Source of the DNA: Thermoguttaceae bacterium
Lineage (GTDB): Bacteria > Planctomycetota > Planctomycetia > Pirellulales > Thermoguttaceae
Direction of reading: 5' to 3'
DNA length: 55,475 nucleotides
Assembly (NCBI GenBank): GCA_049509395.1
Contig: JBEKZY010000040.1
Location: 1 to 55,475 of the forward strand
Shown here: piece by piece, positions 45,413 to 52,237 of the stretch
Numbering within the stretch: position 1 is the first letter of the stretch
How the letters are laid out: each line of letters starts with the position of its first letter
Notes under the pieces: model-generated
What the model saw: the letters and a program-made list of their open reading frames with translations, nothing else
Database searches by the model: none
What the model was told of the DNA's origin: nothing
Program-made: the position numbers and the translations under genes

Positions 45413-46381
45413 ATGGAATCAACGCGCCAAGAAAAACGCATGTCCGCGATCAGCACACGGCTCGGGACCCTCGAGCACCCCTCCCCCACCTTCGCTCCGG
45501 GTTCCGAGCCGGTTGATGACCTGAATATCCGATGCGCAGTAACCATAATCATCCCCGCGCTGAACGAGGCCGACGCCATCGGCCGGGTTGTCGGAGATCT
45601 GGTCGCGCAATATCCCGATTATGAGATCCTGGTCGTAGACGACGGCTCCACCGACAATACAAGCGAACTTGCCGCACGCGCCGGCGCGCGGGTCATCCGC
45701 CACGATTGGAACAAGGGATACGGCGCAAGCCTCAGGACCGGGTGCCGGCTGGCGAAAGGCGAGATAATCGTCTGTTTCGACGGCGACGGACAGCACAATC
45801 CAGACGACGTCCAACGACTCGTCGATGAGATCGGCCCGCACGACATGGTGGTGGGAACGCGATCACGCGACTCCCACGAGCCGCTGGTCCGGCGGCCTGG
45901 CAAGTTCGTCCTTTCCACTTTCGCGAACTTTCTTGCAGGCGTAAAAATACCCGACGTGAATTCCGGCTTCCGCGCCTTTAAACGCGGGGTGATCCTGCGT
46001 TACCTGCACCTCATGCCCACGGGTTTTTCTTTTTCCACGACCAGCACATTTGCCATGCTTAAAAGCGGCCGGCCGGTGAAATGGGTGCCGATTACCGTCA
46101 AAAAGCGGATCGGCACAAGTTCGGTGTCGCAAACCCGCCACGGCCTGCAAACCCTGCTCCTGATGGTCCGCTTGACTACGCTTTTCGAGCCGTTGAAAGT
46201 CTTTCTGCCCGTCAGCACATTATTTTTGCTCATGGCCGTCGGGTTCCTGGTCGCCAATTTCGCCGCCGGCCGCAACGTGCCGCAGACCTCGGTCATCATG
46301 TCCGTCTCCGGCATCATGGTCTTTCTGATGGGACTGGTGATGGACCAGGTGGCCGCGCTTCGCCGGGAGAAACACGAATGA
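45413..46381 (+). CDS. family 2 glycosyltransferase, polyprenyl-phosphate sugar synthase-like (DPM1/GtrB/ArnC architecture)
   Basis: IIIPALNEADAI, ILVVDDGSTDNT, FDGDGQHNP, and two C-terminal TM helices. An alternative start (MSAIST) lies at 45440. Confidence 0.9.
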   Translation: MESTRQEKRMSAISTRLGTLEHPSPTFAPGSEPVDDLNIRCAVTIIIPALNEADAIGRVVGDLVAQYPDYEILVVDDGSTDNTSELAARAGARVIRHDWNKGYGASLRTGCRLAKGEIIVCFDGDGQHNPDDVQRLVDEIGPHDMVVGTRSRDSHEPLVRRPGKFVLSTFANFLAGVKIPDVNSGFRAFKRGVILRYLHLMPTGFSFSTTSTFAMLKSGRPVKWVPITVKKRIGTSSVSQTRHGLQTLLLMVRLTTLFEPLKVFLPVSTLFLLMAVGFLVANFAAGRNVPQTSVIMSVSGIMVFLMGLVMDQVAALRREKHE

Positions 46382-49434: not shown

Positions 49435-52237
49435 AATTGAAATCGGCTCTTCCACGCGCAACTACACGCTCTGCGGCATCGCACTGCTGATCGTGGTCGG
49501 CATCGCCACCGCCGTGAGTTGGCGGATGTATCCGCTGTTCATCGACACTTACTATCACATGGGCGTGATCGAGGGATTCTCCCAGGCGGGCGGCGTTACC
49601 ACGCGGGCCTTTTGGGAACTGGCGCCCGGCGGGCGGGTGCACATTTATCCGCCTTCGCTGCACGTCATCGGATACTTTTTGTCGCTTATCGGCATGTCGC
49701 CGCGGACCTACATCACTCTGGTCAGCGCATTCTGCTATGTCGGCTGCATGCTGACTACTTGGATATGGCTCCGGCAGATCATCGGCGCGCGATCGGCGCT
49801 CTTCGCCATTATCTTTTTGTGCGGACCGTACGGATTCTTCTGGACCCAGGCGGCTTTTACGGCGGTTGCGGGCGTCATGGTCCTGGCCCCGCTTGCCTTC
49901 CTGGCACTGGAAACCGAGCATTTTCTTGCCTGCGGGGTTCTTAATTTTATCGTGATAACGATGCACCCCATCGGGCTTTTCCTGCCTCCCGCACTGGTGA
50001 TCAACACGCTCCTGCGTAGAAAAAAACTCATAGCCGGTTTGCTGGCGGCTTCGCTGCCCGTGGTCTTGTACGGACCGTGGCTGGCTCATATTTGGGCCAA
50101 CCGGGCGTTTTTGCCCGACAACCGCACCGGCGGCGAAATTTCCCTGGGCGGGTTCGGCGGCGGCGCGAATCTCGGATTGTTCCTTGCGCCCTTGGCACTG
50201 CTTTCCATTCCCTGGTTGATCATTCGCCGCGGCCCGGCACTGGGTTTGATCGGCGCATTGCTTGGTTTCGCCGTGGTCTTTCCCATGGGTTTCGGCGGCA
50301 GGTTCCTTTCCTTGAATATCCACTGGCCGCTTGCATGTTTGGCAGGCTACGGGCTGGGGGAACTCGTTCGATGGATTGAAAAGCGCGCCGCGCTTCGTAT
50401 GGGTGTGCAGGTTTTTGCTTTCGCCGTGGCTGGAACCGCGCTGCTCATGTATCCCGCAATCAATTCCCAAACAGGAGGCTTTGGCGGCGGACCGCCGGGC
50501 GGACCGCCGGGCGGACCGCGAGGCGGGGCGCAGGCAGGTATATCAACAGGAGCCAGATTGTGGCAAGAACTGCACTCGATGCTCACTAATTGGCAATTCT
50601 CGGTCCAATCCGCCGCATTGCCGAAATTGTTCGACACATATTCGAGCGAAGGGGCTAATCCAGGAATGGGACCCGGACCGGGCGGCGGCGGCGGAGGGGG
50701 CGGAGGCGGGGGACAAAATCAGCAATCCAATTCCGGACCGCAGGCGGGACCCGGACGAGATATGGGGCCAGGACAAAATGTTCAATCGCCGCGCAGTGCG
50801 GAGCCGGAAAAAAATGCAGGGCCCGGTCCTGCCGCGATACAAGGACGTGATGGTAAACCGGCAAGTAATACAAGCCCGGTAGACATGGGCCCGGGAGGCA
50901 CTGGACAGGCGGATTTGGGACCTGGAGGCATGGGACAGGGAGGCGTGGGACGAGGCGGCGGCATGGGACAAGGCGGAATGGGACAAGGCGGAATGGGACA
51001 AGGCGGAATGGGACGCGGCGGCATGGGGCAAGGTGGGATGGGACGAGGCGGCATGGGGCGCGGCGGCATGATGGGACGCGGCGGTCGAGGCGGAGGCGGC
51101 GGACCAGGCATGCCCGGCGGCATGGATAATATGCTGCGCAGTACAGGCGCCGAGGATTTTATCGCTGCGGTCAAAGAAAATGTCCATCTAGGCGACGTGA
51201 TCCACATCGACGATCCGATGGGCGGATCGATGATTGTCGGCGTCACTGGCAGGTGGACCACGAGCGGCATTCTTCGCGACGTGCGGTCCGAGAACGGCCG
51301 GGCTCAGCCTAAAGACTGCGATTTCAAAGTAGTGCTCAGCCGCGGCATGGGTCCGGGCGGAGGAGGCGGATTTGGCGCGCCGCGCGGACAATCCGCATCA
51401 CAGGATCCGCCTTCCGGTTTCGAAAAGGTCTTCAGTAACGATTTCGGCTCGCTTTACCGAAATACGGCCAAGGTCGATCACCCTCGCCAACCGCTTAAAC
51501 CCGACGTGAGCCTGCTGCTTCTTTCAGTAATCGTGATTGTGGGATTTCTGCTGGTGTTGATCGATTATCTCCCCGTTTCAATCAAGCATGCCCGTCCGGC
51601 GGCTGCGGCAATTGGCACGATCATCGTTGCCCTATGTTTCCTGCCGCTGACGAACACCGCCATTGGCGAGCTTCGCAATCCGCCCTCGGTTTCGCAAACC
51701 CGCTTTGACGGCGGACCAGGCGGCGGCCCCGGATTCGGCGGACCCGGCGGCGGTCCTGGATTTGGTGGACCGGGATTTGGTGGACAAGGATTCGGCCCCG
51801 GGCAATTTATCGCCCAGGCATTTCTCCGGGAAGCGGATACGGACAAGAATGGAACAGTTTCTCTCGATGAGTTTCGCTCTCTTGCGAGGCGATGGTATAA
51901 GAGTTGGGATACCAATCAAAAAGGCTATTTAGAACTTGGGGAAATAACGAAGGGGCTTCAGTCGATCTTCGAGCAGTCGCCCGGCCCGGACGGAAACATG
52001 CCGCCCATGGCTAGACCGCCCGGATTTGGGCCGGGTGAGTTCCTTGCCCGGCGAATTTTCATTGATTGCGACTCCAACGGTGACGGCAAGCTAACACAAG
52101 AGGAGATGGTCGGCGCATTTGAGAAATGGTTCCGCGACTGGGACCAGGGCTCAAAGGGCTCATTAGACGCCACGGAACTGGGAAATGGCCTGCAGCGCAT
52201 TCTAGGCCCCCCGCCCATGTTCGACGGTGATAATTAA
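49418..52237 (+). CDS. polytopic membrane protein with Gly/Pro/Met-rich disordered regions and four EF-hand loops
   Basis: It overlaps the upstream gene by 17 nt, with GGAG 10 nt upstream of the ATG. The N-terminal ~360 aa are multi-TM (LFIDTYYHMGVIEGF loop). It has a (MGQGG)n tract and two further TM helices. The EF loops are DTDKNGTVSLDE, DTNQKGYLELGE, DSNGDGKLTQEE and DQGSKGSLDATE. Confidence 0.75.
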   Translation: MNPPTEIEIGSSTRNYTLCGIALLIVVGIATAVSWRMYPLFIDTYYHMGVIEGFSQAGGVTTRAFWELAPGGRVHIYPPSLHVIGYFLSLIGMSPRTYITLVSAFCYVGCMLTTWIWLRQIIGARSALFAIIFLCGPYGFFWTQAAFTAVAGVMVLAPLAFLALETEHFLACGVLNFIVITMHPIGLFLPPALVINTLLRRKKLIAGLLAASLPVVLYGPWLAHIWANRAFLPDNRTGGEISLGGFGGGANLGLFLAPLALLSIPWLIIRRGPALGLIGALLGFAVVFPMGFGGRFLSLNIHWPLACLAGYGLGELVRWIEKRAALRMGVQVFAFAVAGTALLMYPAINSQTGGFGGGPPGGPPGGPRGGAQAGISTGARLWQELHSMLTNWQFSVQSAALPKLFDTYSSEGANPGMGPGPGGGGGGGGGGGQNQQSNSGPQAGPGRDMGPGQNVQSPRSAEPEKNAGPGPAAIQGRDGKPASNTSPVDMGPGGTGQADLGPGGMGQGGVGRGGGMGQGGMGQGGMGQGGMGRGGMGQGGMGRGGMGRGGMMGRGGRGGGGGPGMPGGMDNMLRSTGAEDFIAAVKENVHLGDVIHIDDPMGGSMIVGVTGRWTTSGILRDVRSENGRAQPKDCDFKVVLSRGMGPGGGGGFGAPRGQSASQDPPSGFEKVFSNDFGSLYRNTAKVDHPRQPLKPDVSLLLLSVIVIVGFLLVLIDYLPVSIKHARPAAAAIGTIIVALCFLPLTNTAIGELRNPPSVSQTRFDGGPGGGPGFGGPGGGPGFGGPGFGGQGFGPGQFIAQAFLREADTDKNGTVSLDEFRSLARRWYKSWDTNQKGYLELGEITKGLQSIFEQSPGPDGNMPPMARPPGFGPGEFLARRIFIDCDSNGDGKLTQEEMVGAFEKWFRDWDQGSKGSLDATELGNGLQRILGPPPMFDGDN
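50924..51090 (+). repeat. 15-nt coding tandem repeat encoding (G-M-G-Q/R-G)n
   Basis: GGCGGAATGGGACAA-type units are repeated about 10 times with drift, giving GMGQGGVGRGGGMGQGGMGQGGMGQGGMGRGGMGQGGMGRGGMGRGGMMGRGG. Confidence 0.9.

Follow-up and report, generated by a model that had tools for sequence, protein, structure and literature searches.

A candidate lipid-carrier glycosylation operon with methyl and redox tailoring domains in a Thermoguttaceae bacterium

In a 55,475-nucleotide stretch of a Thermoguttaceae genome (Planctomycetota; assembly GCA_049509395.1, contig JBEKZY010000040.1), called the window throughout, three overlapping genes on the forward strand encode a family 2 glycosyltransferase (GT2; gene 1), a fusion of a methyltransferase, an iron-sulfur (FeS) flavoprotein and a flippase-like membrane domain (gene 2), and a large membrane protein whose N-terminal domain is modelled with the fold of the GT-C class of membrane glycosyltransferases (gene 3). 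We read this operon as an extracytoplasmic glycosylation pathway that works through a lipid carrier, of the type of Gtr, Arn and CsbB-YfhO, with an MprF-type flippase and with methyl and redox tailoring, and we assign this reading a probability of roughly 0.6. It is carried by the identities of the domains, the GT-C fold of gene 3, an aspartate conserved in an outer loop of that fold, and a tight linkage of the genes which recurs across many loci. The window holds a fused form, specific to its lineage, of a cassette that is widespread and has interchangeable GT-C enzymes as partners.

The acceptor lipid of the GT2, the flipping step, the donor for gene 3 and the whole tailoring chemistry are inferred from this evidence, in the following order. 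Judged by family resemblance, gene 1 would transfer a monosaccharide from a nucleotide sugar to polyprenyl phosphate at the cytoplasmic face. The methyltransferase and the ferredoxin/FrhB flavoprotein of gene 2, which would be tethered to the membrane through their fusion to the flippase domain, may then tailor the lipid-linked sugar or, less likely, its lipid. By analogy with MprF, the UPF0104/PplT domain of gene 2 would flip the product to the outer leaflet, where the GT-C protein encoded by gene 3 is predicted to hand the tailored sugar over to an acceptor in the periplasm or envelope by means of the conserved Asp43 loop.

The N-domain of gene 3 was modelled with AlphaFold2 from an 87-sequence alignment, with a predicted local distance difference test score (pLDDT) of 90.2 and a predicted template modelling score (pTM) of 0.90; a six-sequence alignment gave a pLDDT of 45.7, and the 87-sequence version is the model used here. 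When it was compared with the PDB in Foldseek, the best 27 matches were all GT-C enzymes (STT3, AglB, PglB, EmbB, AftA, ArnT, ALG9, ALG12, DPY19 and Pmt1-Pmt2), the top 22 with a probability of 1.00 and query-normalised TM-scores of 0.46-0.61 and the remaining GT-C matches with probabilities of 0.82-0.99, while unrelated membrane proteins start at an E-value of about 0.7. At the sequence level the N-domain has no Pfam or NCBIfam match, and PDB sequences were matched neither by the single sequence nor by the 87-sequence profile. When the 87 relatives were scanned singly against Pfam, PMT_2 was found in 23 of them (best E 1.2e-7), EpsG in five, GT87 in three and Glyco_transf_22 in two, all of which we take to belong to the GT-C clan of Pfam; the sequence links to GT-C families thus appear weak yet consistent. 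On the evidence of the model, the N-domain is a GT-C-fold protein of a family that has no Pfam or NCBIfam model, and the fold together with the gene neighbours suggests transferase activity and the use of a lipid-linked donor.

The family is large. A word-indexed search of 5.8 billion proteins returned only 11 relatives of gene 3, and a profile search of 1.84 billion cluster representatives returned 434 proteins with E-values up to 1e-3 (315 of them up to 1e-10), bacterial and archaeal, most of them about 510 residues long. After the first transmembrane (TM) helix nearly all relatives carry the motif P-x-F-x-D-x-Y-Y-H-[ML], followed by GF..AGG and WE. In gene 3 the aspartate is D43, within LFIDTYYHMG, some 10 residues past TM1; it is visible in about 110 of 145 representatives, and in the 87-sequence alignment D43, Y46, H47, G58, G59, P70, G72, R73, Y77, P78, P79, H82, H183, P220 and R295 are each at least 90% conserved. 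Comparison by hhalign of the family profile with the 553-residue protein of locus L018, the PMT_2 proteins of L018 and L026, the 627-residue protein of L025 and the 560-residue protein of L017 gave probabilities below 3%, a profile-versus-single-sequence design being too weak. Four metagenomic homologs (P0002, P0005, P0006 and P0008), and likewise the flippase of L016 (9111-11048), change frame part-way; these switches look like assembly or sequencing frameshifts, not true truncations, and they reduce the number of usable relatives.

Gene 1 matches Glycos_transf_2 (PF00535) at E 2e-35, with 122.6 bits versus a cut-off of 23.3, carries a DxD-type motif (DGD, residues 123-125), and by hydropathy ends in two hydrophobic helices at about residues 260-287 and 291-316. 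Its best NCBIfam match is practically full-length, to the AglJ profile (positions 2-289 of 293, E 6e-38; 131 bits versus an equivalog cut-off of 325), followed, all below their cut-offs, by PpgS, a haloarchaeal dolichyl-phosphate hexose transferase, ArnC and PgfS, while ArnC, the Pyrococcus dolichyl-phosphate mannose synthase (DPMS) and the GtrB homolog sll0501 are its PDB matches (E 1e-13 to 1e-8). We therefore predict a GT2 of the polyprenyl-phosphate-sugar-synthase type. As judged from these scores, gene 1 is not an ortholog of any named synthase; the scores indicate its type, and not its sugar.

All domains of gene 2 were recognised by profiles. FrhB_FdhB_N (E 6e-22, 77.9 bits versus 22) and FrhB_FdhB_C (E 1e-24, 87.6 bits versus 23.3) lie between the methyltransferase and the membrane domain, the latter matching LPG_synthase_TM (PF03706; E 9e-36, 124.3 bits versus 33.4) and the NCBIfam model TIGR00374, named 'flippase-like domain' (70.7 bits versus 43.2). 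To our knowledge, lipid flipping by a UPF0104-type domain has been demonstrated for MprF alone; the flippase roles of HexF, GpgF and AglD are predictions (PMC5898192, PMC10128005, PMC12713373). The redox part is closest to ferredoxin-plus-FrhB electron-transfer modules, including the N-terminal half of Fsr: its PDB matches are Fsr, 8riu and FrhB (E 1e-25 to 1e-15), 8rja and, more weakly, HCAR, and it scores below the equivalog cut-offs of frhB and FpoF. The structures 8RIU and 8RJA are F420-reductase modules (PMC11493965). Among 32 FrhB-like homologs the motifs GASGG and QSKY are invariant or nearly so, as are K353, K354, R360, R424 and W427 (domain numbering) in a basic extension of about 100 residues, which is also present in the stand-alone FrhB-like protein of L006 and possibly contacts the membrane or a lipid phosphate. 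The host lineage is not known to us to make F420, so the hydride partner of the FrhB-type domain is, by analogy with HCAR, more likely the substrate of the pathway itself. The best PDB match of the methyltransferase domain is a D-glucose O-methyltransferase; its weak matches include lipid methyltransferases (phosphatidylethanolamine N-methyltransferase, sterol C24-methyltransferase, phthiotriol methyltransferase and the fatty-acid O-methyltransferase Mtf2), and Pfam gave no significant match to the olefin-methylating CMAS or sterol-methyltransferase families.

The coordinates of these and of further features are collected in Table 1. At the junction of genes 1 and 2 stop and start overlap as ATGA (46378-46381), and genes 2 and 3 overlap by 17 nucleotides (49418-49434); judged from locus coordinates, both overlaps are also kept in the closest relatives, L007 and L008. 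The open reading frames (ORFs) are long and the profile matches strong, so chance is not an issue. An earlier note on this DNA, made from the sequence, had described these coordinates, both overlaps and a 203-bp spacer, all of which are present. Profiles, motifs and hydropathy likewise bear out what it had said of the individual genes: a GT2 with the architecture of polyprenyl-phosphate sugar synthases, the fusion of a methyltransferase, two CxxCxxCxxxCP clusters, an FrhB/FdhB domain and a UPF0104/LPG_synthase_TM domain in gene 2, and in gene 3 the Gly/Pro/Met-rich spacers with two further TM helices. The GT-C-like N-domain with a conserved acidic loop, which it had offered as a candidate, agrees with the structure model and the alignment described above.

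Table 1. Coordinates of the operon, its domains, the adjacent regulators and selected proteins of related loci.
Feature	Sequence	Position	Strand	Basis or remark
Gene 1	window	45413-46381	+	322 aa; GT2 with two C-terminal TM helices
Gene 2	window	46378-49434	+	1018 aa, counted from ATG at 46378; methyltransferase/ferredoxin/FrhB/UPF0104 fusion
SAM (S-adenosylmethionine) methyltransferase, class I, residues ~14-260	window	46417-47157	+	Methyltransf_11, E 3e-18
2x[4Fe-4S] ferredoxin	window	47212-47397	+	Fer4 families; two CxxCxxCxxxCP motifs, residues 288 and 322
FrhB/FdhB-type flavin/FeS oxidoreductase core	window	47467-48201	+	FrhB_FdhB_N and FrhB_FdhB_C above cut-offs
Basic extension after FrhB core, subfamily-specific	window	48202-48522	+	conserved KK, R, RxxW
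UPF0104/LPG_synthase_TM/PplT flippase-like membrane domain	window	48556-49305	+	PF03706, TIGR00374
Gene 3	window	49418-52237	+	939 aa; GT-C domain, linkers, small domain, TM hairpin, EF-hands
GT-C-fold N-domain, residues 1-350	window	49418-50467	+	AlphaFold2 model, Foldseek; D43xYYH in first outer loop
Gly/Pro/Met-rich low-complexity linker	window	50468-51097	+	composition, TRF
Small soluble domain, TGRWTT...GIL; FEKVF.N.FG.LY.N	window	51098-51487	+	conserved across whole gene 3 family
TM hairpin, residues ~692-750	window	51491-51667	+	hydropathy; connecting loop basic
EF-hand domain, two EF-hand pairs	window	51803-52192	+	EF-hand_6, EF-hand_1, EF-hand_7 above cut-offs
Divergent intergenic spacer, presumed promoter region	window	45210-45412	.	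203 bp; gene 1 to ECF sigma
ECF (extracytoplasmic function)-type sigma factor	window	44571-45209	-	Sigma70_r2, Sigma70_r4, Sigma70_ECF; divergent from operon
Ser/Thr kinase, TM segment and long tetratricopeptide (TPR) tail	window	41399-44569	-	1056 aa; Pkinase E 1e-41, TPR matches
FAD amine-oxidase-superfamily protein of type B loci	L001	7491-8930		best NCBIfam match an uncharacterised group, PRK07208
	L004	7617-8948		same
	L011	7465-8796		same
X553 proteins	L029	2187-4325
	L092	5517-7139
	L099	2803-4494
	L106	6345-7958
	L018	6343-8001
	L026	7039-8679

Loci around relatives of gene 3 were taken from 185,579 species genomes (10 loci) and from contigs carrying protein matches. All come from metagenome-assembled genomes (MAGs), which belong to Planctomycetota (among them Thermoguttaceae and Phycisphaerales) or Verrucomicrobiota except for one that is unclassified, and every gene 3 relative with sufficient flanks adjoins a UPF0104 gene, a GT2-methyltransferase-FrhB set, or both. 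In what we call type A loci the content is GT2, methyltransferase, FeS/FrhB, UPF0104 and gene 3, in the order seen in the window (also L007, L008, L014 and L012) or as GT2-UPF0104-gene 3-methyltransferase-FrhB (L009, L016 and L019), with two variants: L006 lacks a flippase gene and L010 has the GT2 directly beside gene 3. In type B loci (L001, L004 and L011) an FAD amine-oxidase-like gene takes the place of GT2, methyltransferase and FrhB upstream of UPF0104 and gene 3, the latter present as two tandem paralogs in L004. Methyltransferase, FrhB and UPF0104 share a single open frame only in the window, L007 and L008; other relatives have a two-domain methyltransferase-FrhB protein or encode all three separately. 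Such permuted order, with domains fused or split by lineage, is as expected of one functional unit, and the claim that the three genes are co-conserved holds for each relative whose flanks are long enough. Three features are specific to the lineage, namely the triple fusion, the EF-hand tail and the linkers rich in Gly and Met; the first two are found only in close relatives. In L021 (5244-9566) a remote, 521-residue member of the gene 3 family is divergent from a UPF0104 gene and a 527-residue protein with a PRK domain (uridine kinase/phosphoribulokinase), which suggests that the pairing of GT-C and flippase reaches beyond the methyltransferase-FrhB cassette.

The cassette itself is more widespread than gene 3. 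Relatives of the FrhB-like domain are numerous, share 33-43% identity with it and occur as stand-alone proteins of 430-460 residues or as methyltransferase-FrhB fusions of about 700 residues, and in each of the first five contexts sampled a GT2 is adjacent, together with UPF0104 or a Pfam-recognised PMT_2 GT-C. A pairing of FrhB-like genes with polysaccharide pyruvyl transferases, which was also considered, found no support in any sampled context and was dropped. Of 80 metagenomic loci seeded on the FrhB-like domain, with partner genes found by ORF-level searches, 69 carry a GT2, 66 a methyltransferase and 56 a UPF0104 gene, usually in the order GT2-methyltransferase-FrhB-UPF0104; where one of these genes is missing, the contig is in many cases short. 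Further partners in these loci are proteins that we call X627 (21), X553 (10) and X536 (5), and the gene 3 family itself (2: L049 at E 5e-107 by hmmsearch, and L102 at E 3e-6, the same ORF as X536). X536 thus bridges the gene 3 profile and Pfam PMT, whose cut-off one X536 member reaches (23.1 bits versus 22.7), just as one X627 member reaches that of PMT_2 (30.5 versus 26.1); bona fide PMT_2 GT-C proteins stand beside the cassette in L018 and L026. Judged by X627, X536, PMT_2 and the gene 3 family as neighbours, several distinct GT-C families thus occur as partners of the cassette.

Two of these partners deserve a short description. X627 (among loci L027-L106; e.g., L041:10297-12207, L044:10407-12344, L098:11243-13135) is polytopic and about 620 residues long; its TM1 is followed by an acidic/aromatic motif (for example EDVKSYYSYLPA), and about 200 residues at the C-terminus form a soluble domain. 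Only one of the five members scanned reaches the PMT_2 cut-off in Pfam, and X627 is probably another unmodelled GT-C family. X553 is a soluble protein of about 540 residues, with no TM helices and no Pfam match, which carries the motif DRNYWHYKI and sits between the GT2 and FrhB; its cassette variant in L018 and L026 adds a GFO/IDH/MocA oxidoreductase and the PMT_2 GT-C. In L026 a 1017-residue fusion of a UPF0104 flippase with a sulfatase/phosphodiesterase-type domain (334-3387, minus strand) is divergent from the GT2-GFO/IDH-X553-FrhB-PMT_2 cluster.

Beyond its N-domain, gene 3 continues with a linker that contains a tandem array (50916-51070, by TRF) of about 10 copies of a 15-nucleotide unit encoding GGMGQ/R. 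Met/Gly-rich linkers recur in the planctomycete homologs L019 and L009, and their methionines may either bind metal or belong to a flexible spacer only. The small domain that follows is conserved throughout the family, is predicted to be periplasmic and probably contributes to acceptor binding. The earlier note had counted four EF-hand loops: an EF-hand domain is indeed present (EF-hand_6 53 bits, EF-hand_1 48 bits and EF-hand_7 44 bits in two stretches, Pfam), but the loops at residues 807 (DTDKNGTVSLDE) and 885 (DSNGDGKLTQEE) are the only canonical ones, and the partner of each is degenerate. This tail is found only in the window, L008, L009 and L016. The basic loops at 198-206, 268-274, 318-328 and 720-732 are assigned to the cytoplasmic side by the positive-inside rule, which would turn D43, R73, H82 and R295 outward, as well as everything after residue 350 apart from the hairpin loop, the small domain and the EF-hands included; a periplasmic EF-hand domain may make the transfer responsive to Ca2+ in this lineage.

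As to regulation, an ECF sigma factor and Ser/Thr kinase pair adjoins the operon in six records that represent five distinct loci (the window, L007, L016, L009 and L019/L020), in two arrangements, divergent in the first three and downstream in L009 and L019/L020, and an ECF sigma factor is also found upstream in the type B loci L001/L003. On this evidence of linkage we hypothesize that the pair probably controls expression of the operon as an envelope-stress response. A promoter and terminator scan found nothing above background and no sigma-70 consensus in the spacer, an ECF-type promoter not being among the patterns searched for. Directly upstream of the GT2 in L019 lies an AraC-type regulator (2119-3087; cupin and HTH_AraC), which an ORF between the ECF sigma factor and the GT2 in L007 (2048-3022) resembles by eye; in L007 it is followed by a Ser/Thr-rich ORF of 233 residues (3025-3726, minus strand), and the window has no such regulator.

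Which other readings would the same genes allow? The foremost of them, though we consider it unlikely, is a membrane-glycolipid operon like HexSDF or GpgSDF, where the GT2 would glycosylate a glycerolipid or another bulk lipid of the membrane, the methyltransferase and FrhB domains would tailor its head group or chains and the UPF0104 domain would flip the end product, the GT-C protein either decorating that lipid further or having a separate job. Every UPF0104-linked system characterised so far, namely MprF, HexSDF (PMC10128005) and GpgSDF (PMC12713373; cf. the PplT preprint), does handle glycerolipids and not polyprenyl-phosphate sugars, the weak best matches of the methyltransferase include lipid methyltransferases, and about one quarter of the 80 cassette loci have no recognisable GT-C nearby, though many of those contigs are short. 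However, the resemblance of gene 1 to polyprenyl- and dolichyl-phosphate sugar synthases extends along the entire protein, down to the paired TM helices at its C-terminus, which sets it apart from HexS, which is annotated as MGDG (monogalactosyldiacylglycerol)-synthase-like, and GpgS, a GT4 enzyme; all known GT-C enzymes take lipid-phosphate-linked donors; and a GT-C-like gene is translationally coupled here, with several GT-C families recurring beside the cassette. A further reading, improbable as well and placed after the glycolipid in our ranking, keeps the same backbone and has the methyltransferase and FrhB domains modify the carrier, by methylation of an isoprenoid double bond and flavin-dependent reduction, yielding a dedicated carrier lipid. 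Pairs of olefin methylation and reduction operate in the synthesis of tuberculostearic acid and of sterol side chains, and the FrhB-family enzyme BciB reduces a C=C bond, depends on ferredoxin and has a hydrophobic substrate. HCAR, likewise a ferredoxin-dependent FrhB-family reductase of a hydrophobic substrate, is among the PDB matches of gene 2, the methyltransferase and FrhB domains are neighbours or parts of one chain in nearly all cases (66 of 80 loci), as expected of consecutive steps, and their type B replacement belongs to the amine-oxidase/CrtI superfamily of flavoproteins, which contains isoprenoid desaturases and saturases. Such chemistry on the isoprenoid is plausible by analogy, but the methyltransferase matches neither CMAS nor sterol methyltransferases significantly in Pfam, and its best PDB match acts on D-glucose. 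Tailoring of the sugar, on which the preferred pathway is built, is plausible too and would combine O- or C-methylation with an oxidation or reduction, much as ArnD, ORF13 or DprE1/E2 act on lipid-linked sugars (PMC11127046).

That gene 3 could be an oligosaccharyltransferase (OST) for protein N-glycosylation is suggested by its closest structures, STT3, AglB and PglB, since the 12 best Foldseek matches are OST catalytic subunits; we regard it as very unlikely. ArnT, Emb, Aft, ALG and PMT score almost equally, and the sequence matches of the relatives are to PMT_2, GT87 and GT22, not to STT3. The linked GT2 is of the type that makes monosaccharide-phosphate lipids, and genes for assembling a pyrophosphate-linked oligosaccharide are absent nearby. 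No match to WW[DN] or W[WY]D[YWF]G was found anywhere in gene 3, nor an OST-like C-terminal domain, and on the missing WWDYG-type motif we reject the OST reading. The least likely reading is an incidental adjacency of three functionally unrelated genes. The stop/start overlaps are conserved in relatives, the domains are fused or split across lineages, and the set recurs in more than 80 loci from different environments, permuted in order and the same in content; these synteny data therefore effectively refute it.

The lipid-carrier pathway, which we prefer, has its own difficulties, among which the glycerolipid substrates of the characterised UPF0104-linked operons have already been named. No FrhB-type enzyme offers a precedent for acting on a glycolipid, and the roles of all components are drawn from sequence, a structure model and gene context. 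Gene 1 scores far under the equivalog cut-offs of all named synthases; gene 3 of the window has neither a Pfam GT-C match nor a sequence match to PDB chains, and its structural matches are moderate, with a root-mean-square deviation (rmsd) of 6-13 A. In L006, L010 and L049 the stretch from the cassette to the GT-C contains no flippase gene, and the contigs of L006 and L010 end within or just past the GT-C gene, so that downstream sequence is missing. The type B loci L001, L004 and L011 have no adjacent GT2, methyltransferase or FrhB gene; the GT-C therefore does not always require the tailoring module. Finally, the location of the EF-hands and the regulatory idea attached to it come from the positive-inside rule alone.

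A broader proposal, which we put forward tentatively and with less confidence than the pathway itself, is that the cassette represents a widespread and hitherto unrecognised route of bacterial envelope glycobiology. At the cytoplasmic face of the membrane a lipid-linked monosaccharide would gain a methyl group and undergo redox modification by an FeS flavoprotein that depends on ferredoxin; an MprF-type flippase would then export it and one of several interchangeable GT-C enzymes would transfer it. One of these enzymes would represent a large new family, whose planctomycete members would be regulated by Ca2+ through periplasmic EF-hands and controlled by the ECF sigma/kinase pair as an envelope-stress circuit. 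We know of no lipid-linked sugar for which methylation combined with FeS-flavoprotein redox chemistry has been described. If this is correct, gene 3 would represent a candidate new family of membrane glycosyltransferases, with hundreds of representative clusters and no model in Pfam-A or NCBIfam, and the UPF0104/PplT flippases would gain a concrete role with polyprenyl-phosphate sugars, which has hitherto been only predicted. The FrhB subfamily, which routinely bears the label 'coenzyme F420 hydrogenase beta subunit' in organisms that are not known to produce F420, would be linked with the making of envelope glycans and would point to new tailoring chemistry on lipid-linked sugars; additionally, a stress-regulated and possibly Ca2+-responsive surface modification would be added to the poorly understood envelopes of planctomycetes. 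The cassette is compact (three to five genes) and should therefore be transferable to E. coli for direct identification of its product.

In the wider window, a secreted beta-helix protein resembling GH28 (glycoside hydrolase family 28) enzymes and pectate lyases is encoded directly 3' of gene 3 (52467-53831, plus strand), and in L006 the GT2 is preceded by a divergently oriented gene for a Pel9A-like beta-helix protein (5695-6900, minus strand); these neighbours may be a coincidence or may tie the system to a galacturonan-like glycan. A pyruvate-formate-lyase-like glycyl radical enzyme with its radical-SAM activase (10898-14327, minus strand) points to an anaerobic or facultatively anaerobic host, in keeping with the presence of a ferredoxin-dependent FeS enzyme in the operon. 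An ORF of 1374 residues (23010-27134, plus strand) has no Pfam match at E <= 1e-4. The GC content of the operon (0.59-0.60) is at the upper end of the range of the window (0.47-0.61) and is matched by neighbouring bins, so composition gives no hint of recent transfer from a mobile element.

Compared with known systems, the order of synthase, flippase and transferase does parallel the three-component, Gtr-type glycosylation to which the earlier note had likened it, as the GT2 type, the UPF0104 match and the GT-C fold indicate. As in Gtr of Shigella and Salmonella, CsbB-GtcA-YfhO and Arn, a GT2 with C-terminal TM helices, a flippase and a GT-C are encoded together, and in ArnC-ArnD-ArnE/F-ArnT the lipid-linked sugar is also tailored (deformylated) before flipping, in an operon under envelope-stress control. 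The differences are that their flippases are of the GtrA or SMR type, whereas the three-gene operon has no GtrA-like gene and a UPF0104/PplT (MprF-type) domain holds that place; that tailoring would here be done by a SAM methyltransferase and an FrhB-family FeS flavoprotein; and that the GT-C is unmodelled in Pfam and NCBIfam and carries a small conserved domain and EF-hands. Cytoplasmic redox remodelling of a lipid-linked sugar before export is known from the pentofuranose and mycobacterial decaprenylphosphoryl arabinose (DPA) systems, where a synthase, a MATE flippase and a GT136 GT-C are accompanied by auxiliary ORF13 or DprE1/DprE2 (PMC11127046). There, too, auxiliary enzymes swap between loci, as FrhB plus methyltransferase and the amine-oxidase-like protein do here, but the donor is made from phosphoribosyl pyrophosphate (PRPP) by a phosphoribosyltransferase and not by a GT2, the epimerases are short-chain dehydrogenases/reductases (SDR) or DprE1/2, and the flippases are of the MATE or SMR type.

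With HexSDF of C. difficile (PMC10128005) and GpgSDF of P. aeruginosa (PMC12713373), for which the synthase and the deacetylase have been shown experimentally and the flippase is predicted, and with MprF, the operon shares the grouping of a UPF0104 flippase with genes or domains for glycosyl transfer and tailoring; HexSDF also has a dedicated envelope-stress regulator, HexRK, whose counterpart here would be the ECF sigma/kinase pair. Those two systems differ in that the end product is a glycosylated glycerolipid, the modifier is a deacetylase, there is no GT-C, and the glycosyltransferases belong to other families; by Pfam, the operon in the window has no deacetylase domain, and its glycosyltransferase is a GT2, not of the GT4 or MGDG-synthase type. 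The closest match in backbone is archaeal: a triad of GT2, UPF0104 flippase and a distant PMT/STT3-like protein was predicted for glycosylation in 2015 (PMC5898192), as AglD-type fusions and arCOG00899/arCOG00563/arCOG00897, and the gene 3 family also has archaeal members, although in that neighbourhood the flippase is fused to the GT2 and there is no methyltransferase or FrhB module. The backbone is thus not unprecedented, and of the earlier claim that no known pathway has this composition what stands concerns the methyltransferase-FrhB module: among open-access papers and bioRxiv preprints we found no characterised case of it or of the cassette. According to the PplT preprint, the flippase domain is rarely fused with SAM methyltransferases. 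As for the redox part, it shares with FrhB, FpoF, Fsr, 8RIU/8RJA and HCAR the 2x[4Fe-4S] ferredoxin, the FrhB N- and C-domains and the GASGG and QSKY motifs, and it differs as a subfamily that carries the basic extension and lies almost always beside a GT2, a methyltransferase and a UPF0104 flippase.

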